64,000 nucleotides of DNA, from assembly GCA_964480955.1 (NCBI GenBank), contig CAYZRW010000001.1, forward strand, positions 49,650 through 113,649, in the 5' to 3' direction. The translations under genes and the position numbers were made by a program. Below, piece by piece: positions 6,097 to 24,455 of the stretch (position 1 is its first letter; each line of letters starts with the position of its first letter). The notes under the pieces were generated by a model, which was not told where the DNA came from, made no database searches, and was given only the letters and a program-made list of their open reading frames with translations. The DNA comes from an uncultured Candidatus Bathyarchaeia archaeon. Its GTDB lineage: Archaea > Thermoproteota > Bathyarchaeia > 40CM-2-53-6 > RBG-13-38-9.

Positions 6097-6933
6097 CTAG
6101 ACTGGAACTTGTCTGCCTGAGTGGTCCCTCTTGGTGACACTGAGTTCCTTCAGGTTCCTCAAGATTTCGTCATCGAAGACAGGGCCGTCCCTGCAGACTC
6201 TGTGGGAATCTATGACGCAGCTCCCACATATCCCCACGCCGCACTTCATGATTCTCTCAAGACTGGCCTGAACCGGAATCGAGTACTCTGAACCTAGCTC
6301 CACCACTCGCTTTATCATCGCCTCCGGACCGCATGTATAGATGACGTCGTAATCATTCTCCTTGAGTTCAGCCTCAGCAACCTCTGAGGCCAAGCCTTTA
6401 ACCCCGTAAGCCCCGTCCTCGGTCACAGGGATCACTTTGCCTCCCACGTATTCAGAGTTGATTCTGTGTCGGTCCAGAAAGAGGAGTTCGCCCGTGACTG
6501 GGGCTCCAATAATCGCCGTGAACTCCCAGCCACTCCCCGCCAGTAGATCTGAGAGGGGCCCTAGGGGCGCTCCTCCAGCCCCTCCTGCAACGATGAGGGC
6601 CCTCTTACCATCAGTCAGGGTGAATCCTCTGCCGTAGGGACCTCTCACCCCCAGGGGTTGCCCCATCCTTCTGTAGTATAATGCTCCGGTTGCAGGCCCA
6701 ACCATCTTAACCGAGACTGCGGCGAGATCGTCCTGCAACATGTATGAGATACTCATCGGTATCTCGTCCAGACCGGGAATCCAGACCATCAAGAACTGTC
6801 CGGGCTCGGCTTTGGAGGAGGGTTCATCCCTGAAGTAGATGGACTTGATCGTCGCCGTCTCGACTACACCTTTTTGGATCCTTACAATCCTTGGGCTGTG
6901 AGCAATTCTCTCTTTGCGTGGTTCTGATGACAT
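6097..6933 (-). CDS. PyrK-like FAD/NAD(P)-binding oxidoreductase (dihydroorotate dehydrogenase electron-transfer subunit / FNR-like) with a C-terminal 2Fe-2S Cys cluster
   Basis: Motifs: GQFLMVWIPG, GGAGGAPL, and C-terminal CGVGICGSC...C. The start is taken at the internal ATG (6933) because the longer ORF would overlap herA. No pyrD partner is adjacent. Confidence 0.55.
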   Translation of the reverse strand: MSSEPRKERIAHSPRIVRIQKGVVETATIKSIYFRDEPSSKAEPGQFLMVWIPGLDEIPMSISYMLQDDLAAVSVKMVGPATGALYYRRMGQPLGVRGPYGRGFTLTDGKRALIVAGGAGGAPLGPLSDLLAGSGWEFTAIIGAPVTGELLFLDRHRINSEYVGGKVIPVTEDGAYGVKGLASEVAEAELKENDYDVIYTCGPEAMIKRVVELGSEYSIPVQASLERIMKCGVGICGSCVIDSHRVCRDGPVFDDEILRNLKELSVTKRDHSGRQVPV

Positions 6934-6988
6934 ATTCGCCACTATAAACCACAACTGCCTCTGGGTCGACTCTAAAAGCCTTTCTGGG

Positions 6989-8428
6989 TCAATCCTGGAA
7001 GAACTGTCGCGTCTGACCCATCGTCTGAACATTCAGTGGCTCCACATTGACTACCACCGGAAAGTTTCTGACTATGTCGCCAACTACCAGACAGTTGTGG
7101 ACTGGAAGGTCTTTAACGATCAGTCTTAGACTCTCGGCATCTATCTTGGCAACCTTGGAGACAGCGTCCAGGTCGTGTTCGTTTGTAAAGTTGAACATGA
7201 AGATGTTATCGGCTTGCCTGTACACACTCTCCTGGACTGTGTCTGGCTGATTAGTGATGAAGGTTGTGAATACACCCAGATGCCTCATCCTGGTCACTAT
7301 ATCGTCCCAGTAAGTCTCGCGTAGGTAGAAGTGAGCCTCCTCAGCAAAGAGGAAGACTGCTCTGAGCTTCATCTCCGAAAGTTGCTCAGTCAGTTTGCTT
7401 ATGAATAGTTCAACTATCAGTCTTCGACTGATTGAGTGTTCATCCTTCATGTTTATTATGAAGGCTGAACCCTCACTCATCCTCTTCTCGAAGAAGCTGA
7501 AGTCAAAAGCTTGTGAGGGGTCGTCAGTGAAGAGTTCGAGGTCGAGCAGGGTGTTGAATCTTGAGTAGATGGCCTCTCTGACACTCTCATGGCAGCCGAA
7601 TCTCCTGATAGTCTCGTTGAGGGCATTGAGGTTTAGGTTTCCGCTTCTCTCAAGCTCGCTCCAGATTCTGGAGAAGACCTTTGAGGATGTTCTGGGAAGG
7701 TCCAAGGCGTAGATCATGGTGTCAAGGAATGCCCTCAGGCCGACTCCTGCCAGGCTGAATCTCAGGTTTTGGCCTGGCGTCAGGACGAATATCCTCTCAG
7801 CGACCGGATTCGGCTCGTTCCTCTTTCCACGGCCTATATTGACGTATTCACCGTTGATGTCAAGTATGAGGCAGGGAGCTCCATTCTTAACTAGACTCAA
7901 GACTAGCAGCTTTGATAGGTGTGATTTACCAACACCCTTCTTTCCTGTTATGATATTTAGCTTCCCATCTAGCATCTTGACGTCCACTGTCAAGATGTCG
8001 GACCTTGTCCTTCCAAGGGTGACTGGCCGCCTCCCATCTTTTGTGGAAGCCAGCCTCTCGATCGGGTAAGGGACTATGCTTGAGGCTGTTCTTGAGGGGA
8101 GCCACGACGCGTCTTGGCGCGGTCTCCCATCATCGATAGCCCCCCTGATCTTGCATACTAACAGTCTGGTGTCCTTCAGTACCTCGATCTGGGACGAGAC
8201 TCTGAATGGGTCGTAGTCGCATCCTTGAACCGAGTCCTCGGTCATCACGTCTCTTAGGATGTCTTCAAGTATGCCAGGCAGGTTTGCAAACTGAATATCT
8301 ACAACTTGGACTATGAGCCCCTTTCTCAGCTTCTTGTCTTCTATTAGTAGGTAGTCTCCCTTCTGTACAAATTCCTCTGGAGGACAGATTATCTGTATGG
8401 TGTCGCCCTGCTTCTTGTATATCTTCAT
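6989..8428 (-). CDS. herA: HerA-like FtsK/HerA-superfamily ATPase (N-terminal HAS-barrel plus P-loop)
   Basis: 479 aa. N-terminal barrel-like segment (MKIYKKQGDTIQIICPPEEFVQKGDYLLIED...). Walker A is GKKGVGKSH. Walker B-like hhhhEEAH (FLFAEEAH). It follows nurA with zero gap. Confidence 0.7.
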   Translation of the reverse strand: MKIYKKQGDTIQIICPPEEFVQKGDYLLIEDKKLRKGLIVQVVDIQFANLPGILEDILRDVMTEDSVQGCDYDPFRVSSQIEVLKDTRLLVCKIRGAIDDGRPRQDASWLPSRTASSIVPYPIERLASTKDGRRPVTLGRTRSDILTVDVKMLDGKLNIITGKKGVGKSHLSKLLVLSLVKNGAPCLILDINGEYVNIGRGKRNEPNPVAERIFVLTPGQNLRFSLAGVGLRAFLDTMIYALDLPRTSSKVFSRIWSELERSGNLNLNALNETIRRFGCHESVREAIYSRFNTLLDLELFTDDPSQAFDFSFFEKRMSEGSAFIINMKDEHSISRRLIVELFISKLTEQLSEMKLRAVFLFAEEAHFYLRETYWDDIVTRMRHLGVFTTFITNQPDTVQESVYRQADNIFMFNFTNEHDLDAVSKVAKIDAESLRLIVKDLPVHNCLVVGDIVRNFPVVVNVEPLNVQTMGQTRQFFQD

Positions 8429-9595
8429 TCAGGATGCCTCTGTTGATGTGCCGAACGGTCCGAAGAGGGATCTTCTGAAGCTAAACCTTGGTGCCAAGCG
8501 GACGCCATACTCTATAGATAGGTGTCTTTGAATCGCCAGGACCTCGTTTGCTGTGAAGGTTGAGAGGATATGGGCAAGGCGAAGCGTTTCGGGGTAACCT
8601 TGCTCGACGAGGTCTGAATTGATCAGCCGCCCCACGGCAGCTATTCCTGATTCCTCAGGTAGTTGACGGTCGATATCGACTCTGAATGGAAAGCTGATCT
8701 GCGCAAGCTTTGCTACGTAGACTCTACCCATCAACCTTACAGGGGTGGATGGGAACTGGGGTGCTATCAGCCTATCAATGTCGAGTATGCACGGCGGGTC
8801 GGCCTCATCTAGGAGTCTAGTTATCCTCTTTCCTGAGTAGCAGAGTCTGGTCTCCTTGGAGAAGGCTATGACCACGTTGCTGTTCTCTCTCGCCCTGTTG
8901 AGAAGCTCCTCCACGTAGACTGTCGGGTTGTCCGGCGTTCCTGCTGTGAGTGAACCGTCAAGGAGGACTATTCCTTTGGAGAAGCGTGAGCAGGCGATCT
9001 TCTGCATCCACCTCTCAAGTGTATTTCTGAGCCTTGCGAGTACACGTTCAGTCATGGGCGACCATGCGGAATATGTGAGGTCCTCTTTTGCGTATGATCT
9101 CTTGTTGAGAGATCTTGCGATGGCGTCGTTTACGTGGAAGGTTAAGGGTCCACATCTTGTGAAATTGTAGCTTGAGCCTTCCCTCCAGACCAAAGCTCCC
9201 CTTAGTGAGTAGAGGAGGCCCTGTTCGGACTCACCGACCCTTATGCTTGAGACGTCGACTGCCACAACGGAACAGTTGCCTAGAGTGGCCGGAATGGGCG
9301 TGGGTTTGCTGAGCATCGGTGTGTCTTTGAGGTTTATCGCCGGGTCTTCGTCAATTTCCTCTTCGAGGCTTATCTCTGCCGTCGAGAGTTCTCGGGGTTC
9401 AAAACTTCCTCCATTTATGGTTCTCATCGATTCGCTGCTCAGGTCTAGCAGGAAATCTGGGAGTAGGGTTGTCTTGGAATCCTCCAAGAGTAACCTACTT
9501 ATCTTTGAATGTTCAAATTCTATTCCTTGGGTGCGGTGGGTCAATTTACTTCCCCCCAGTAGGAGTTTTCCCCCAAACTCCTGCGGCCGCCGCAC
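8429..9595 (-). CDS. nurA: NurA-domain 5'-3' nuclease
   Basis: 388 aa. NurA motifs: VVAVDVSS (motif I Asp), IVLLDGSL (DGS motif), and the C-terminal GYPETLRLAHILSTF, matching the conserved GYP..L..AH..F of NurA. Confidence 0.7.
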   Translation of the reverse strand: MRRPQEFGGKLLLGGSKLTHRTQGIEFEHSKISRLLLEDSKTTLLPDFLLDLSSESMRTINGGSFEPRELSTAEISLEEEIDEDPAINLKDTPMLSKPTPIPATLGNCSVVAVDVSSIRVGESEQGLLYSLRGALVWREGSSYNFTRCGPLTFHVNDAIARSLNKRSYAKEDLTYSAWSPMTERVLARLRNTLERWMQKIACSRFSKGIVLLDGSLTAGTPDNPTVYVEELLNRARENSNVVIAFSKETRLCYSGKRITRLLDEADPPCILDIDRLIAPQFPSTPVRLMGRVYVAKLAQISFPFRVDIDRQLPEESGIAAVGRLINSDLVEQGYPETLRLAHILSTFTANEVLAIQRHLSIEYGVRLAPRFSFRRSLFGPFGTSTEAS

Positions 9596-9614: not shown

Positions 9615-10148
9615 TTACTTGTCAGGTTCTCGATTGCCTCCTGAGTCTTCGTTCCCCACATCCCTTAGAGTCTTGAGGGTCTCTTGGACCTCTCTGGTTC
9701 CGGCTAAGGTGAGTCTGTAGCTACCTTTTCCTACACGCTCAACGATGCCAGCCTTGCTCATCTCTGTGAGGGTGTTCTGGACGGTCTTTTGGGCCTTGCC
9801 TATGACCCTAGCAATCTCCTCCACCCGTGCCTCGTCGCTCGTCCTCTTTCCAAGTTTGAACGCTATCTGCATAGCGAGCAGGATCGCTCCGGCGGCCTCA
9901 TCTGTGGAGAGGTCTGACCGGAGAAGTATCGGTTGACCTTCAAGTGTCAGGTTCACAAATGTTGAGGTCTCCTCTAGGAGTGAGAGGTAGTCTGGGTTGT
10001 AGACAAGTCTTGAGGCGACGTCATAGGCTGGGTAGATCTCTGAGATATATTGATTTATAGCCTTCAAGACCTGTTCGGGTTCGCCCTCTATTGTATGTTT
10101 GAGGTCTCCGTGTTCTATCTGGACTCTCAACTTCGAATCTCGACTCAT
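9615..10148 (-). CDS. paralogue 1 of a tandem family: N-terminal beta-rich domain plus C-terminal winged helix
   Basis: 177 aa from the internal ATG (MSRDSKLRVQIEHGDLKHTIEG...), which has GAGGA 7 nt upstream and avoids overlap with paralogue 2. C-terminal GIVERVGKGSYRLTLAGTREV. It sits 20 nt upstream of nurA. Confidence 0.55.
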   Translation of the reverse strand: MSRDSKLRVQIEHGDLKHTIEGEPEQVLKAINQYISEIYPAYDVASRLVYNPDYLSLLEETSTFVNLTLEGQPILLRSDLSTDEAAGAILLAMQIAFKLGKRTSDEARVEEIARVIGKAQKTVQNTLTEMSKAGIVERVGKGSYRLTLAGTREVQETLKTLRDVGNEDSGGNREPDK

Positions 10149-10158
10149 CTTTTCTTCC

Positions 10159-10656
10159 TCATGTGGTGAGTTTGGGAACGATATTCCGGATGAAGAAGTC
10201 AAGCCCGTAGGTCGTTATTCTGTACTCGCCCTTGCCCACCCTCTCGACTAGACCTTCGGTGCACATCTCGCTTATTCTGCCGGCCACTGTTCCAGCAGCC
10301 TTCTTTGTGTAAGCTATCAAGTCTCCTATCAGGGCCTTGTCAGAATCTAGATGTTTGGTGATGTAGCCTACGTGAGCTTTGGAGAGGTTGAGCAGAATCA
10401 GTTCTCGGTCAGTCAAATGTTCGGTTGGGACTGTTACCACAACGCCTTCCAGTGTGAGTTTCATTATTTGGGAGCATGAGGAGAGGAGTTCCTCCTCGTC
10501 GACTGTTAGAGTTATCTTTGATATGAACTCGAGTTTGGGTATGTTCGCTGACATGAAGCTTATCAACTCACGGATCACCTCATTGACGTCTCCCCTGATC
10601 TTCTTCTCGAGGTCCCTGTATTTGATCGAGACCTCGACTGTCCTATCTTCGCTCAA
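10159..10656 (-). CDS. paralogue 2 of the tandem family
   Basis: 165 aa: MSEDRTVEVSIKYRDLEKKIRGD...GLVERVGKGEYRITTYGLDFF. Same architecture as its neighbours. Confidence 0.55.
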   Translation of the reverse strand: MSEDRTVEVSIKYRDLEKKIRGDVNEVIRELISFMSANIPKLEFISKITLTVDEEELLSSCSQIMKLTLEGVVVTVPTEHLTDRELILLNLSKAHVGYITKHLDSDKALIGDLIAYTKKAAGTVAGRISEMCTEGLVERVGKGEYRITTYGLDFFIRNIVPKLTT

Positions 10657-11122
10657 CCGCTACTCCTCCAGGCCTCATGGACTTGACCATGTTCTCTACC
10701 CAATGTTTTCCTGCTACCGTGAGTCTGTATGTGTCGCCCTCTTTGTAGGAGAAACCTTCACGTTTGAGTTCGCTGAGTCTGCTTGCGAATCCGACTGATA
10801 GGAATCCGCTGAGACTCAGGAGGCGACTGAGTTCTCTCGGCCTCACGCCTCTTGGGTCCATGGCGTAGAGCAGGATGCCGACCGCCTCTCTGTCGGTAAG
10901 TTTCTCTTTTGTGACTGTCAGGACCGGCCCTTCGGTTGTCACTTGGACTATTCCTGAGAGGATGTCCTTCTCCCCTACTGCGGCTGACTGGCTTGTAATC
11001 ATGCTGTCGATGACCTCGAGCCATTCAGGGAAGTCTTTCAGGCGGTCTATGATCTCGTCGAAGTTCTCGCCTTCCAGTTCTATGTCGCCGTAGCTTCTGT
11101 GGAGTACGAGCCTGACCTTCAA
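10643..11122 (-). CDS. paralogue 3 of the tandem family
   Basis: 159 aa: MKVRLVLHRSYGDIELEGENFDEI...GFSYKEGDTYRLTVAGKHWVEN. A TATA-like box lies 33-41 nt upstream. Confidence 0.55.
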   Translation of the reverse strand: MKVRLVLHRSYGDIELEGENFDEIIDRLKDFPEWLEVIDSMITSQSAAVGEKDILSGIVQVTTEGPVLTVTKEKLTDREAVGILLYAMDPRGVRPRELSRLLSLSGFLSVGFASRLSELKREGFSYKEGDTYRLTVAGKHWVENMVKSMRPGGVAVERR

Positions 11123-11154
11123 GTCGGTTCAGGATCTCTTTAGTCTACTGAAAA

Positions 11155-11163
11155 GTATATAAG
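11155..11163 (-). promoter_or_regulatory. TATA-box-like element upstream of paralogue 3 (archaeal promoter, near-leaderless)
   Basis: gtatataag lies 33-41 nt upstream of the ATG at 11122, consistent with an archaeal TATA centred at about -27 and a short leader. Confidence 0.35.
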
Positions 11164-11185
11164 TCTTGCCGTAAAGTTGGAAGTA

Positions 11186-11206
11186 TACGTAACGTTTAAC
11201 GTTTAC
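11186..11206. promoter_or_regulatory. tandem palindromic hexamers tACGTaACGTTtaACGTTtac between paralogues 4 and 3; candidate operator
   Basis: Two or three copies of the self-complementary AACGTT/ACGT spaced 7-8 nt apart in the 119-nt intergenic region. Confidence 0.3.
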
Positions 11207-11241
11207 AGAGAGCCTAACGAGGCCACTCAAGAGAAATAGAG

Positions 11242-11739
11242 TTACCGCAGCTTTCTGAGAACCTCATTCTCAACCCACTGTACACCGGCACCTGAGAGGG
11301 AGTACTTCCCGTTCTCAGCCACCAGTCGGCCCTCCCTTCTGAGTTCACTTGCTCTTGCCCTAACCGCTTCAGGCTTCATAGTCTTCCAGCTTGAGCTGAG
11401 GAGATTGCTTAACTCATCACATTCGATTGTTGCAGGTCGGGCTGCGTAGAGGATCAGTGCCAAAGCCTCCTTCGCCTTTAAGGTATCGACGGGAACCGTG
11501 AGCCTGGGTTTGCCTTCAGGTGTGAGCTCAACCACACCTTGTAGGGAGGGCGCGACTTGCATCTCTTGCCCCTCAAACTCAGAGAGCGTCTTTTGTAAAG
11601 AAGGTTGCTCACGGTCTGTTCTTGGGAGATTCTCCAAGAGCCTCTCGAAGCATTCTTTCACATATGTGAAGTTGCCTTCGAGCTCTACCTCATAATCCCC
11701 ACATCTTATTCGAAATCTCAAAGTCCTGTCTTCGCTCAA
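11242..11739 (-). CDS. paralogue 4 of the tandem family
   Basis: 165 aa: MSEDRTLRFRIRCGDYEVELEGNFTYVKECFERL...GRLVAENGKYSLSGAGVQWVENEV. It shares the MSEDRT N-terminus with paralogue 2. Confidence 0.55.
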   Translation of the reverse strand: MSEDRTLRFRIRCGDYEVELEGNFTYVKECFERLLENLPRTDREQPSLQKTLSEFEGQEMQVAPSLQGVVELTPEGKPRLTVPVDTLKAKEALALILYAARPATIECDELSNLLSSSWKTMKPEAVRARASELRREGRLVAENGKYSLSGAGVQWVENEVLRKLR

Positions 11740-12230: not shown

Positions 12231-12449
12231 ATGGGACGGTTAGAAGTTAGGTGGAGTAAGATGTTGAGTGAGAGCCGACCAGGTCGACCGCGTCAACTTC
12301 CTTATGAGGGAAAACTCAGAAGAAGGACTGTTTGGTTGACGGAGAAGACTTGGCGACGAATCGAGGAGTGGTCACAGAGCAAAGGATGCGCCAGTATCAG
12401 TGAGGCTGTCAGGCAACTGGTGATGCGTGGGCTCGAAAGCCAGCAGTGA
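12231..12449 (+). CDS. ribbon-helix-helix (CopG/Arc-like) DNA-binding protein
   Basis: 72 aa: RRTVWLTEKTWRRIEEWSQSKGCASISEAVRQLVMRGLE is a beta-strand followed by two helices, the typical RHH fold. The real start may be the internal Met (MLSES...). Confidence 0.5.
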   Translation: MGRLEVRWSKMLSESRPGRPRQLPYEGKLRRRTVWLTEKTWRRIEEWSQSKGCASISEAVRQLVMRGLESQQ

Positions 12450-12577: not shown

Positions 12578-12717
12578 GCGGCCGTAGTCTAGATGTGCGG
12601 TCTGGAGTAGCCCGAAGACCCAGAGCACAGGACAACCTGGTCTAGGACATTGGCCTTCCATGATCAACATACAGTCGAAGCAAGCCAACGACCCGGGTTC
12701 GAATCCCGGCGGCCGCA
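12578..12717 (+). tRNA. tRNA-Gly(UCC) containing two introns: 43 nt in the D-loop and 22 nt at 37/38
   Basis: Exons GCGGCCGTAGTCTAG (12578-12592), CCTGGTCTAGGACATTGGCCTTCCA (12636-12660) and AGCCAACGACCCGGGTTCGAATCCCGGCGGCCGCA (12683-12717) assemble into a 75-nt cloverleaf. Acceptor stem GCGGCCG/CGGCCGC. D-stem GTCT/GGAC with D-loop AGCCTGGTCTA. Anticodon stem TTGGC/GCCAA with loop CTTCCAA (anticodon UCC). Variable loop CGAC. T-arm CCGGG-TTCGAAT-CCCGG. Discriminator A. CCA is not encoded. Confidence 0.65.
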
Positions 12718-12724
12718 CACCACT
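12704..12724 (+). repeat. attL core (overlaps the tRNA-Gly 3' end)
   Basis: Near-identical to 24348-24366. Similarity continues weakly downstream (GCAATGAA.TAG). Confidence 0.65.
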
Positions 12725-12842
12725 AGCAATGAATAGATACCACTCTGGGAAATGTGGGGTCTTGAAGTAAATCGCGCATTAGGGACAACGCTGCTTCTGG
12801 TCTTTAAATGGCAGCTTATATACGCTTAGACCACTTGTCAAA

Positions 12843-13586: not shown

Positions 13587-15005
13587 CTATTTACCTGCCA
13601 GAATCTCCTTTTTCAACGTCTCTTTCAATTCTCTGCTCAGTAGTTGAATCTCGTAGGCTTCTCTCTCACCTGCTGAGACACAGATCCTATGTGGTTCAGC
13701 TAACGCTTCCCTAGTCAGTATCTTTTCAGGGTCAAGACCCATACCTCTAGTAAAGGTCTTCAGCATCTCAATCTTCGAAACTTTGGTTTTGGGTCTAATA
13801 CTGAGACCAGAAGCAGAGTAGACGTTTCTCAGAAACTCAATGCCCTTCATCTGGATGTCATGGTAGGTATCGATAGTGTGACCCATCATGTAATCAACAT
13901 AGTCTGATTGAACTCCCAAAGCCATGAGTTGAGTCTTGAAGAACTTCCGAATACTATGCACCTTCAGGTCGTAGACTCTGCCCCTATTGGGCTTCAAGAG
14001 TCCTGCTTTGAAATACAATCCATGTACTAGCTGGTAGATCTGCTTCTCACCAATCGGCTTAGGAGTTCCCGAATTTGCATCCTTTATCAAGGGTGAATCA
14101 TCTGTGATGTCTTCGGGAGGGATCTTGCCGTCTGGTGAACCCTTCCGTCTAGTCTCCAAGTAGAGCTTCAGATATTCCACAGCTTCTTGGCCTAGAAATG
14201 TGTCATAATCGTGATACTTGCCTTTGGTTATGTCTGCCTCAACATGAATGTGAAGAGGGACTATCCCACGTTCCAGATCCTCTTTGACATGACCGTAAGT
14301 CAGCTTGATTAGGGTACCTTCTCTGAAGCCCCCCAGAGCCAGCAACGAGATTATGACTTTCTCACGGAGATCCGCTATGTCTAGTAGCTTTGCGAGTTCT
14401 TCAGGCCTTGGAGCCCGGTCCTTTCTGATGGTTCTCCGTTGTAGTGGGAAGGGGAGTTTTAGATCGATTCCGTGAACGCGGTATAGTGCTCTGATAGCCT
14501 TGACGTAGTTGCATATTCTGCATGGTGCAAGTCCTTCGTCTTGAAGTTCTGCGACAAATCGCTCTAGAGCTTTGATATGTTCTTGGAGTCTTTCATGTCT
14601 TACTTGTCCCTCTTCATTCTTCATATTACCGACAAGTTCGTCGGGGGTTAGATTGAGATAGTTGCAGTATCGTGTGATACAGTCTACATACAAGTAGAGT
14701 GTCTTGGGGCTGCCTGTCCTATACCTTAGAAGGTAGTTAGCAAGATTCTGTAATGCGAGGTTCTGAAATACATATGGGATCAGTCGAGGTCGTTCCCTCA
14801 GAAGAGAAGTGATGATATACTTGACAAGCCCCTTCTGGCTTACTGCCCTTAGATCCTCAAGAGGAACCTGAACTGGTGTTTTGAGTCTAGACCCTTCAGA
14901 ACTGTACTCTAACAGGAAACTGGTGTCTTCAATTCTCCCGAGACTCGTTAGAAACGGGAGGTCCTCAAGTGTAAGCATCCTTTCTTTCAAGATGAGTTCT
15001 GTCAA
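13587..15005 (-). CDS. int: tyrosine recombinase / integrase (intact, non-partitioning type)
   Basis: 472 aa. C-terminal catalytic region has HSIRKF (HxxR) ... GHTIDTYHD (nucleophile Tyr). It is adjacent to the tRNA att site. Confidence 0.75.
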   Translation of the reverse strand: MTELILKERMLTLEDLPFLTSLGRIEDTSFLLEYSSEGSRLKTPVQVPLEDLRAVSQKGLVKYIITSLLRERPRLIPYVFQNLALQNLANYLLRYRTGSPKTLYLYVDCITRYCNYLNLTPDELVGNMKNEEGQVRHERLQEHIKALERFVAELQDEGLAPCRICNYVKAIRALYRVHGIDLKLPFPLQRRTIRKDRAPRPEELAKLLDIADLREKVIISLLALGGFREGTLIKLTYGHVKEDLERGIVPLHIHVEADITKGKYHDYDTFLGQEAVEYLKLYLETRRKGSPDGKIPPEDITDDSPLIKDANSGTPKPIGEKQIYQLVHGLYFKAGLLKPNRGRVYDLKVHSIRKFFKTQLMALGVQSDYVDYMMGHTIDTYHDIQMKGIEFLRNVYSASGLSIRPKTKVSKIEMLKTFTRGMGLDPEKILTREALAEPHRICVSAGEREAYEIQLLSRELKETLKKEILAGK

Positions 15006-22721: not shown

Positions 22722-23411
22722 ATGGATTGGTGGAGTTCCAATTGTGTCCTGTCTAAGGGAGAGGAAGGAGGGTTGACTACCGCACTGCCACCCACCCCCA
22801 ATGACACTTACGCCTTGTGGAGAGTAAAATTTCTCAAGCCTAAACCTTTGCAAAATGAGGTTTTGAGGGCTTTGTCTCAAGTTGAGAGATCAAGTGTTAA
22901 AGGTTTAGCTTCAGATTTGAAGAGGGACAGACGCTCAATTCAACGTTGCCTAGAGAGACTGAAAGACGACGGCGAAGTTCACGATGTATGGTGCCGCCCA
23001 GCACCTTGGATCAGCCCTAAAATCATTGCTCATTACCACTCTCTCCCAACTCACCTGAAGAGCAAGACCGAACATAGCTCCTCTGACTGTGAAGAGGTTG
23101 TGGAGGAGCCTTTAGGATTCAGGATCCTAAGACTATTCTCAAATTTCCAGTGCTTCACAGTCGGCAGCGTTTCGAAGTTGCTTAAGAAACATCATAGCCA
23201 AGTAAGGAAGGTTCTGAAGACTCTTCACCGGCATGGCCTTGTCGATTATACAGAACATAAGACTGGAAGGGACCCAGACTCTCTGGGAAAAATATGTTTC
23301 TGGTTTGTCAACGATGAAGGCCGAACCTTAGCCGGACAGTCCGTAAAGGAATATGATTGTGTTGTTCGTAGGCGTAGAGGCGGAATAGCCTATAGGCATC
23401 GGGTGTCGTGA
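22722..23411 (+). CDS. tandem winged-helix (MarR-like x2) transcription regulator
   Basis: Two wHTH units (NEVLRALSQVERSSVKGLASDLKRDRRSIQRCLERLKDDGEV and FRILRLFSNFQCFTVGSVSKLLKKHHSQVRKVLKTLHRHGLVDY). Confidence 0.45.
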   Translation: MDWWSSNCVLSKGEEGGLTTALPPTPNDTYALWRVKFLKPKPLQNEVLRALSQVERSSVKGLASDLKRDRRSIQRCLERLKDDGEVHDVWCRPAPWISPKIIAHYHSLPTHLKSKTEHSSSDCEEVVEEPLGFRILRLFSNFQCFTVGSVSKLLKKHHSQVRKVLKTLHRHGLVDYTEHKTGRDPDSLGKICFWFVNDEGRTLAGQSVKEYDCVVRRRRGGIAYRHRVS

Positions 23412-24347: not shown

Positions 24348-24366
24348 TCCCGGCGGCCGCACCACT
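24348..24366 (+). repeat. attR core (partial copy of the tRNA-Gly 3' end, T-loop not intact)
   Basis: tcccggcggccgcaccact, preceded by the degenerate ttaag instead of ttcgaa. Confidence 0.65.
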
Positions 24367-24455
24367 CTGGCAATGAACTAGTGTTGTTTATTCCAGTTTT
24401 CAACATGTGAGCAGGGTGGAGGAGGGTCTAAGAATGTTAAAGGTTCCGGACAGGG

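Follow-up and report, generated by a model that had tools for sequence, protein, structure and literature searches.

In archaea, HerA and NurA form the end-resection motor of homologous recombination. The canonical pair has been described from Sulfolobus, Pyrococcus and Thermococcus, with its genes arranged in a herA-mre11-rad50-nurA operon (PMC3326311, PMC5715905, PMC4351679, PMC12977600). Here we describe a 64,000-nucleotide (nt) stretch of contig CAYZRW010000001.1 from an uncultured Candidatus Bathyarchaeia archaeon (the window), in which four tandem genes encoding small winged-helix proteins, the paralogues A, B, C and D, precede a divergent nurA-herA pair. As in the canonical system, a NurA-domain nuclease is encoded beside a HerA/DUF87 ATPase, with the two reading frames translationally juxtaposed, and the pair keeps the Walker A and B motifs as well as the conserved acidic and histidine residues of NurA. 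Unlike in the canonical operon, no mre11 or rad50 turned up in the scanned open reading frames (ORFs) of the window or in the gene calls of the six loci that were read (L001, L004, L005, L089, L091 and L093), so that the arrangement is non-canonical, as an earlier note on this DNA had it; both HerA and NurA are very divergent in sequence, and two to four winged-helix paralogues stand ahead of the pair, a partner that has not been described for the canonical system.

A winged helix can direct a motor of this kind: the gamma domain of FtsK, through recognition of the FtsK-orienting polar sequences (KOPS), gives DNA-substrate selectivity to a translocase of the FtsK-HerA superfamily. This is the closest mechanistic analogy for a winged helix directing a HerA-type motor, although in FtsK the winged helix is the C-terminal domain of the motor, whereas here the winged helices are separate paralogous proteins with no sequence relationship to it. 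NurA-HerA itself is known; what is new is a divergent NurA-HerA pair accompanied by a conserved, uncharacterised set of winged-helix paralogues. Full-text literature searches returned work on the canonical HerA-NurA only, with no description of the family or of its linkage to NurA-HerA. We propose, at a probability of roughly 0.45, that A-D may assemble as paralogous subunits into a hetero-oligomeric set that binds DNA and acts as a sensor or targeting factor for the divergent NurA-HerA machine.

Paralogues A-D and the enzymes they accompany

The four paralogue genes are consecutive on the minus strand, upstream of nurA-herA and co-directional with it, as the earlier note had described:

11242-11739, minus strand: paralogue A, 165 amino acids (aa), with its own TATA-like box upstream
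10643-11122, minus strand: paralogue B, 159 aa, TTG start
10159-10656, minus strand: paralogue C, 165 aa, the best conserved of the four
9615-10148, minus strand: paralogue D, 177 aa counted from ATG
8429-9595, minus strand: nurA, divergent NurA nuclease, 388 aa
6989-8428, minus strand: herA, divergent HerA-type ATPase, 479 aa

The ATG start of D is consistent with the 177-aa length of the D orthologues. A and B are separated by a 119-nt gap, C and D by 10 nt, and D and nurA by 19 nt, in line with the spacing given in the note; B and C, for which it had a short gap, were instead found to overlap by 14 nt (the B stop lies over the C start), and nurA and herA abut. The motifs quoted there are genuine: the N-terminal hairpin, LT.EG and the G(L/I)VERVGKG.YR(L/I)T wing.

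Comparison of the window copies by BLASTP pairs A with B (37% identity, expect value (E) 2e-17) and C with D (31%, 5e-20), with the remaining pairs at E 1e-7 (A-C), 5e-7 (B-C), 2e-6 (B-D) and 4e-4 (A-D). A hidden Markov model (HMM) built from C orthologues alone scores D at 96, A at 38 and B at 33 bits, the best of 800 shuffled copies reaching 10.8, and all four proteins can be aligned over their full length. A-D are therefore confirmed as true paralogues, with a similarity far above chance. The duplication is also old, as had been supposed: among the relatives listed from the profile search A, C and D each have separate orthologues at 50-80% identity in other genomes, and B orthologues in related loci are 62-86% identical. 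The C orthologues are mostly about 50% identical to the C of the window, which places C between HerA and NurA, whose median identities to the window proteins across Bathyarchaeia are 57% and 41%, respectively.

The AlphaFold2 model of C, built from 83 relatives (mean predicted local distance difference test score, pLDDT, 86), starts with a beta-hairpin (residues 7-22) followed by three helices (24-38, 42-49 and 54-61), continues with a second hairpin (65-74) that bears the invariant T.EG motif, and ends in a canonical winged helix (83-147) and a C-terminal helix (149-164). The winged helix has the MarR/ArsR/PadR-like winged helix-turn-helix (wHTH) fold: its helix 1, strand, helix 2, helix 3 and beta-hairpin wing can be superposed on those of solved members. 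Foldseek against the PDB returned no full-length structural analogue of C; the top match (E 4e-3) covers the winged helix only. For the N-terminal module we obtained no Pfam match, and its low-confidence stand-alone model resembles no solved fold; a profile of the N-terminal 80 residues gave 196 matches among 1.84 billion representative proteins, nearly all of them 150-185 aa long or fragments of that architecture. We define the proposed family by an N-terminal ββααα module found by profile, a length of about 150-185 aa and a C-terminal winged helix set between the second hairpin and the final helix. With the HMM of this family each of the four proteins of the window reaches 114-241 bits.

Named wHTH families do not accommodate these proteins, just as the note had been unable to place them. 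Matches in Pfam, NCBIfam, PADLOC and PHROGs are all sub-threshold and all to the winged helix, and the profile searches put A-D in no well-characterised regulator family. At curated cut-offs none of HVO_A0261_N, TrmB, AbiEi_4, MarR and the Csa3 HTH matches A-D. The best score is that of D against HVO_A0261_N (25.8 bits, cut-off 35), D being the only one of the four copies with near-threshold wHTH matches in Pfam, while A, B and C stay at E 0.02 or worse; HVO_A0261_N also matches 52 of the 83 relatives, every time under the cut-off, and cas_HTH reaches 22.4 bits against 60.2. The family is absent from curated libraries, and its database annotation is "hypothetical protein". Relative to the MarR/ArsR/PadR regulators, including AF1382 (2qvo) and the pNOB8 centromere-binding AspA (4rs8, 5k5q), A-D reach no Pfam or NCBIfam cut-off and differ in adding the N-terminal hairpin-plus-helices module, the second hairpin and the C-terminal helix; unlike such regulators, which act singly, they form hetero-paralogue sets linked to enzymes.

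The same structural data bear on whether the winged helices touch DNA at all. The N-terminal halves of A-D are acidic (net charge -4 to -7) and the C-terminal, winged-helix halves neutral to slightly basic (0 to +5). Winged helices can also serve as protein-protein modules, as in ESCRT-II and the kite subunits of SMC complexes, and A-D could then act without binding DNA, as a scaffold for the HerA hexamer and the NurA dimer or as a factor in their assembly. The acidic to neutral character of the proteins, their occurrence in multi-paralogue sets, single weak matches to MksE and JetB models and the lack of a full-length structural analogue among DNA-binding regulators would fit such a role. However, the invariant residues R127, S129, R139, K142 and Y145 of C belong to the recognition helix and the wing, the parts through which DNA-binding winged helices contact their target. 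The top structural matches are DNA-binding regulators without exception, and the kite-type matches are both single and sub-threshold, which makes the scaffold role improbable to our minds. ESCRT-II, kite and GINS-like ideas were considered as models for A-D and dropped, with no structural or profile support found for them.

Both enzymes are recognisable members of their families. NurA scores 31.6 bits against Pfam PF09376 (gathering threshold 21), and HerA scores 50.3 bits against DUF87 (PF01935; 23.2), which places it in the FtsK-HerA superfamily. In 70 orthologues NurA residues D114, E194, D213, D307/D309 and H342 are at least 95% conserved, and we infer that they are the catalytic positions; the Walker A motif GxKGxGKS (162-169) and the Walker B motif FAEEAH (361-366) of HerA are invariant in its orthologues. 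HerA is not the canonical Thermoproteota protein by the NCBIfam equivalog HerA_Thermprot (21.8 bits, cut-off 800). By sequence its nearest solved relatives are Sir2-HerA (8j4u, E 4e-7) and HerA of Sso (4d2i, E 3e-4), and NurA has no sequence match to any solved NurA. In thermophilic Thaumarchaeota HerA-NurA is treated as a recombination pair, with Mre11 and Rad50 reported elsewhere in the genome (PMC5797428).

Conserved linkage, reuse of the module and flanking genes

A profile of the four proteins collected 638 relatives, and those with a named source are almost all from Bathyarchaeia and annotated as hypothetical. For the genome scan, which covered one genome per species, only C orthologues were used as the query, as the mixed-paralogue alignment had no stretch conserved enough. 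The scan yielded 80 loci, all from Bathyarchaeia save a few bins with bacterial names, which are probably mis-binned. ORFs were then called and labelled with HMMs in 85 loci, that is, the 80 scan loci and five fetched earlier. With or without the PyrK-like gene described below at the end, 32 of these have the layout A-C-D-NurA-HerA, 13 C-D-NurA-HerA, 10 A-B-C-D-NurA-HerA and 6 B-C-D-NurA-HerA, and most of the others are cut by contig ends. Among the 80 species-level Bathyarchaeia loci, practically all that have enough flank carry C-D-NurA-HerA on a single strand, with HerA directly after NurA in 68. D always directly follows C (median gap 4 nt, 73 loci); the other median gaps are -14 nt for B-C, 67 nt for D-NurA and 0 nt for NurA-HerA, and where B is absent A lies 370-2900 nt upstream of C. 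The universal core is C-D; A mostly forms a transcription unit of its own, and B is limited to one lineage. In the six most divergent loci (L079-L085) phmmer did not find NurA or HerA; in L080, the one of these that was re-checked, the downstream ORFs match NurA (1e-19, 71 bits) and DUF87 (9e-11) by Pfam.

The linkage extends beyond Bathyarchaeia. Genomes labelled Caldarchaeum sp. and 'Nitrososphaerota' carry one or two C/D-like copies beside a NurA-HerA pair of the same subfamily, after which come Ogg and RsmB. This HerA shares 40% identity, and this NurA 32%, with its counterpart in the window; these outgroups were not reached by the HerA homologue search, in which the top 120 hits were all from Bathyarchaeia. 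Co-localisation with herA/nurA, the absence of which elsewhere would have spoken against the earlier note, is kept in about 80 Bathyarchaeia species and in Caldarchaeum. Caldarchaeum has two tandem C/D-like copies and a shorter copy on the opposite strand. Such shorter proteins, of 136-154 aa, are encoded between the family member and nurA at L091 7453-7863 (minus), L093 7489-7953 (minus) and L089 8669-9127 (minus); they combine the N-terminal hairpin motif with a winged helix, have no middle hairpin, and are 49-77% conserved among those loci.

The module also occurs away from nurA-herA. A 535-aa protein, P0292, recovered from three independent assemblies, joins a Ser/Thr kinase to two downstream hairpin-plus-winged-helix modules: one is C-type (107 bits against the C orthologue group, ogC, vs 51 against that of D, ogD) and the next D-type (ogD 97 vs ogC 59). 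The module order, C then D, is that of the genes, and both modules are without the N-terminal hairpin-helix part. The P0292 gene (L088 322-1929, L095 369-1976) adjoins an MFS-like (major facilitator superfamily) transporter gene and is not beside nurA-herA. As a Rosetta-stone-type fusion, P0292 points to paired action of C and D, and the N-terminal module, dispensed with in the fusion, would normally hold the separate proteins together. In a second context (L086, metagenome contig k141_4062102, 1094-5592, with the same genes in L087) three modules stand beside an XPB/PbeA-like superfamily 2 (SF2) helicase. One, of 141 aa, is D-like and stands alone; another, of full C/D type, is preceded in its protein by a domain that by eye is PD-(D/E)xK-like and has no library match; and the third, of A type, is joined to a TIR-like domain (PADLOC, 7.6e-12). 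The A/C/D set is thus met again in the company of another helicase and a putative nuclease, and the module has been recruited into at least one defence-like island. The same cluster holds a small ORF with an E-C-K motif and, on the opposite strand, three weakly related small winged-helix genes.

Around the array in Bathyarchaeia the context is one of housekeeping genes, with a tRNA gene upstream and a PyrK-like gene, S30e, DUF763, Elp3 and GatD/E downstream. In the window the immediate neighbours are:

12578-12717, plus strand: tRNA gene with two insertions, found by Rfam; conserved upstream neighbour of A and boundary of the locus
6097-7032, minus strand: PyrK-like gene (DHODB_Fe-S_bind), overlapping the herA stop by 44 nt

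The PyrK-like gene was considered as part of the system and rejected, and is treated as a neighbour because in some loci it overlaps herA and in others it lies up to about 570 nt away, and because Caldarchaeum lacks it. Downstream of herA it is found often though not always, S30e coming next in other loci, and it may be co-transcribed by position only. The tRNA gene (Rfam 47.5 bits; missed by ARAGORN) has insertions of 51 and 24 nt, and its 3' end opens a 30-nt direct repeat (12704-12733) with a second copy 11.6 kilobases (kb) away (24348-24377, 87% identity). A tyrosine integrase gene (13587-15005, minus) lies just inside the repeat, and G+C falls to 0.44-0.47. These features point to an integrated element of about 11.6 kb for which the tRNA, the ancestral neighbour of A, served as attachment site; the element does not belong to the NurA-HerA system. 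That the A-D array itself belongs to the element was considered and rejected, as the tRNA-A adjacency and the array are kept in genomes without the element. Between A and the tRNA, a 72-aa ORF (12231-12449, plus) has a weak ribbon-helix-helix (CopG) match (E 0.09); related genomes lack this stretch and have the tRNA at about 100-150 nt from A. Further off, ARAGORN calls a tRNA-Leu at 23084-23165 (plus) that Rfam does not confirm and that may be a false positive; it falls inside a 229-aa ORF (22722-23411, plus) with two winged-helix matches (HVO_A0114, 7e-8; TFIIE_alpha, 1e-5).

Much of this evidence can be used to ask whether the locus is an anti-virus or anti-plasmid defence system built on HerA and NurA, with the winged-helix proteins sensing foreign DNA, an option that the note had raised. 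The top PADLOC match of HerA is mad8 of the MADS system (1e-16), followed by anti-phage HerA models; the Sir2-HerA similarity, the defence-like island with its TIR-like and putative nuclease fusions and the integrated element next door point the same way. The window pair also resembles the bacterial anti-phage systems Sir2-HerA and DUF4297-HerA in joining an ATPase to an effector, there a nuclease or NADase, although the similarity of HerA to both these and mad8 is weak, the effector here is NurA, and Sir2, DUF4297 and the MADS partners are all absent. PADLOC finds no complete system: HerA is the sole matching component, with no significant match for NurA, A, B or C, and the HerA_antiphage equivalog cut-off is missed widely (38.8 bits vs 800). 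Nor is the distribution that of a patchy island. The locus is chromosomal and syntenic with housekeeping genes over some 80 species and into Caldarchaeum; it is present in all 80 recovered species loci, with a single copy in each locus examined, and its sequences diverge gradually from locus to locus. No relatives of the family were found in plasmid, phage and IMG/VR collections, and the integrated element is placed where it is because of the tRNA gene, an ancestral neighbour of A. Taken together, the context makes a defence role for the window locus unlikely, and we hold it to be one of the two least probable explanations considered here.

Promoter and operator-like sites

The gap between A and B carries the cis elements of the B-C-D-nurA-herA unit:

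11183-11203, minus strand: operator-like block AACGTTAAACGTTACGTATAC, 21-41 nt 5' of the TATA box of the B unit
11155-11177, minus strand: promoter core ACTTTACGGCAAgaCTTATATAC, a segment like the B recognition element (BRE) plus TATA box, conserved, 33-40 nt 5' of the B start codon
11155-11162, in the A-B gap: TATA box TTATATAC, conserved

The note's claim of a separate TATA box in the 119-nt gap is thus borne out by TTATATAC. The spacer is conserved across genomes whose proteins are just 60-80% identical, and reads AACGTTAAACGTTACGTATAC, then ACTTTACGGCAA..CTTATATAC, ending 33-40 nt before the B start. In 18 of the 28 B-type loci the core ACGTTACGTA, with at most one mismatch allowed, falls between -10 and -90 relative to the B start, as compared to 7 matches elsewhere in 289 kb; it occurs once within the 64-kb window and never at the equivalent site in the 52 B-less loci, being restricted to B-carrying lineages. 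The respective motifs are ACGTTACGTATAC in the B lineage and AGTAACACCT in the B-less lineages. In the latter, AGTAACA(C/T)CT stands about 37 nt upstream of the C TATA box in 52 of 52 loci, often twice and then 73 nt apart, as at -178 and -105 relative to C in L040. In 25 of these 52 loci a conserved divergent gene for a winged-helix protein of 85-100 aa was detected between A and C (for example L048 5457-5756, minus). That this small protein is a truncated family member was considered and rejected (profile-profile E 0.009 over 43 columns against A/B and 0.28 against C), and it is treated as a separate wHTH. Together with AGTAACA(C/T)CT it likely forms a divergent regulator-operator pair (loci L021-L078).

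Conserved operator-like sites and the divergent wHTH gene indicate that the operon is regulated, with a regulator and operator that vary by lineage while C-D stays constant. The B-less arrangement suggests that controlling the operon is a task distinct from that of C and D, and in the lineage of the window B would be the best candidate for the regulator.

The question is then whether the whole set could be plain transcription factors, binding operators such as AACGTTACGTATAC and repressing or activating nurA-herA, and perhaps a DNA-damage regulon too, without touching the enzymes. This is the main rival explanation and one that we regard as doubtful. The MarR/ArsR/PadR-like fold, the weak profile matches to TrmB, AbiEi, Csa3-HTH and MarR and the conserved block 5' of the B TATA box all fit it, and so does the coincidence of B and ACGTTACGTA by lineage, since loci that lack B have another motif and a divergent wHTH gene, so that B could be the regulator. 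On the other hand, two to four conserved paralogues per locus would be unusual for an autoregulator, and C-D are kept even alongside a separate divergent regulator gene. Fusions to kinase, TIR-like and putative nuclease domains are typical of sensor or targeting modules, the N-terminal module would be left unexplained, and the single occurrence of the operator motif in 64 kb gives no regulon in the window.

Proposed role of the paralogue set

In the sensor or targeting role that we favour for A-D, C and D would be the obligate core, to which A, and in the window lineage B, are added members. The acidic hairpin-plus-helices modules at the N-termini would hold the paralogues together, and the hairpin, winged-helix and C-terminal-helix module would contact DNA or a partner. 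With the divergent NurA nuclease and the HerA translocase the set would make up a chromosomal, vertically inherited machine for processing DNA or DNA ends in Bathyarchaeia and related Thermoproteota, the set sensing or selecting the DNA substrate and recruiting or gating NurA-HerA. B-C-D-nurA-herA would be transcribed from its own promoter, and the upstream operator-like site would allow feedback control, possibly by B. The tight and conserved linkage, the retention of the paralogues, the family-specific N-terminal module, the C-D fusion and the re-use with other enzymes together argue that C-D, with A or B, are functional partners of a helicase-nuclease machine and more than its repressors, while the winged-helix fold, the invariant residues of the recognition helix and wing and the operator-like site make DNA binding, and some autoregulation, plausible. 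Of the regulatory or targeting module that had been suggested on first reading, we thus retain the general claim, leaning towards targeting or sensing subunits with possibly some autoregulation, and set the defence option aside. What the data show directly are the paralogy and the fold, the conserved linkage, the fusions, the cis element and the intact motifs of the enzymes; hetero-oligomerisation, DNA binding and the control or targeting of NurA-HerA are predictions.

Several observations pull the other way. A-D are mildly acidic overall (isoelectric point 5.2-5.8), and a winged-helix charge of 0 to +5 is weak for a DNA binder. When small winged-helix proteins head an operon they are, in the classical case, repressors or activators, and the locus does have a conserved operator-like site. 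The opposite-strand gene that Caldarchaeum has between the copies and nurA means that co-transcription is not universal, and the cellular role given to the divergent NurA-HerA pair is itself presumed.

A more specific version can be put forward, which we consider possible though less secure than the general proposal. Here A-D would be a hetero-oligomeric DNA sensor or loader, in which the N-terminal modules assemble the complex and the winged helices select the DNA, and would serve a distinct resection machine, the NurA-HerA of Bathyarchaeia and Caldarchaeales, as its dedicated recruiting and gating factor; the A/C/D set would in addition be a portable adaptor, attached elsewhere to a kinase, to a TIR-like effector and to a nuclease-plus-SF2-helicase pair.

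How HerA-NurA is recruited and restrained is still poorly understood, in model species as well. If the proposal is true, an accessory set that is class-wide and strictly linked to the pair would be a new class of partner for HerA-NurA, and a family now listed as "hypothetical protein" would gain a function. The six proteins and one promoter element form a defined unit for reconstitution in vitro, which matters because Bathyarchaeia have no genetic system. The fusions to kinase, TIR-like and putative nuclease domains suggest that the module can be put to repeated use as a sensor or adaptor, which bears on archaeal signalling and defence. Should A-D turn out to be regulators only, they would likely still constitute a control circuit for recombination genes in an abundant uncultured lineage.

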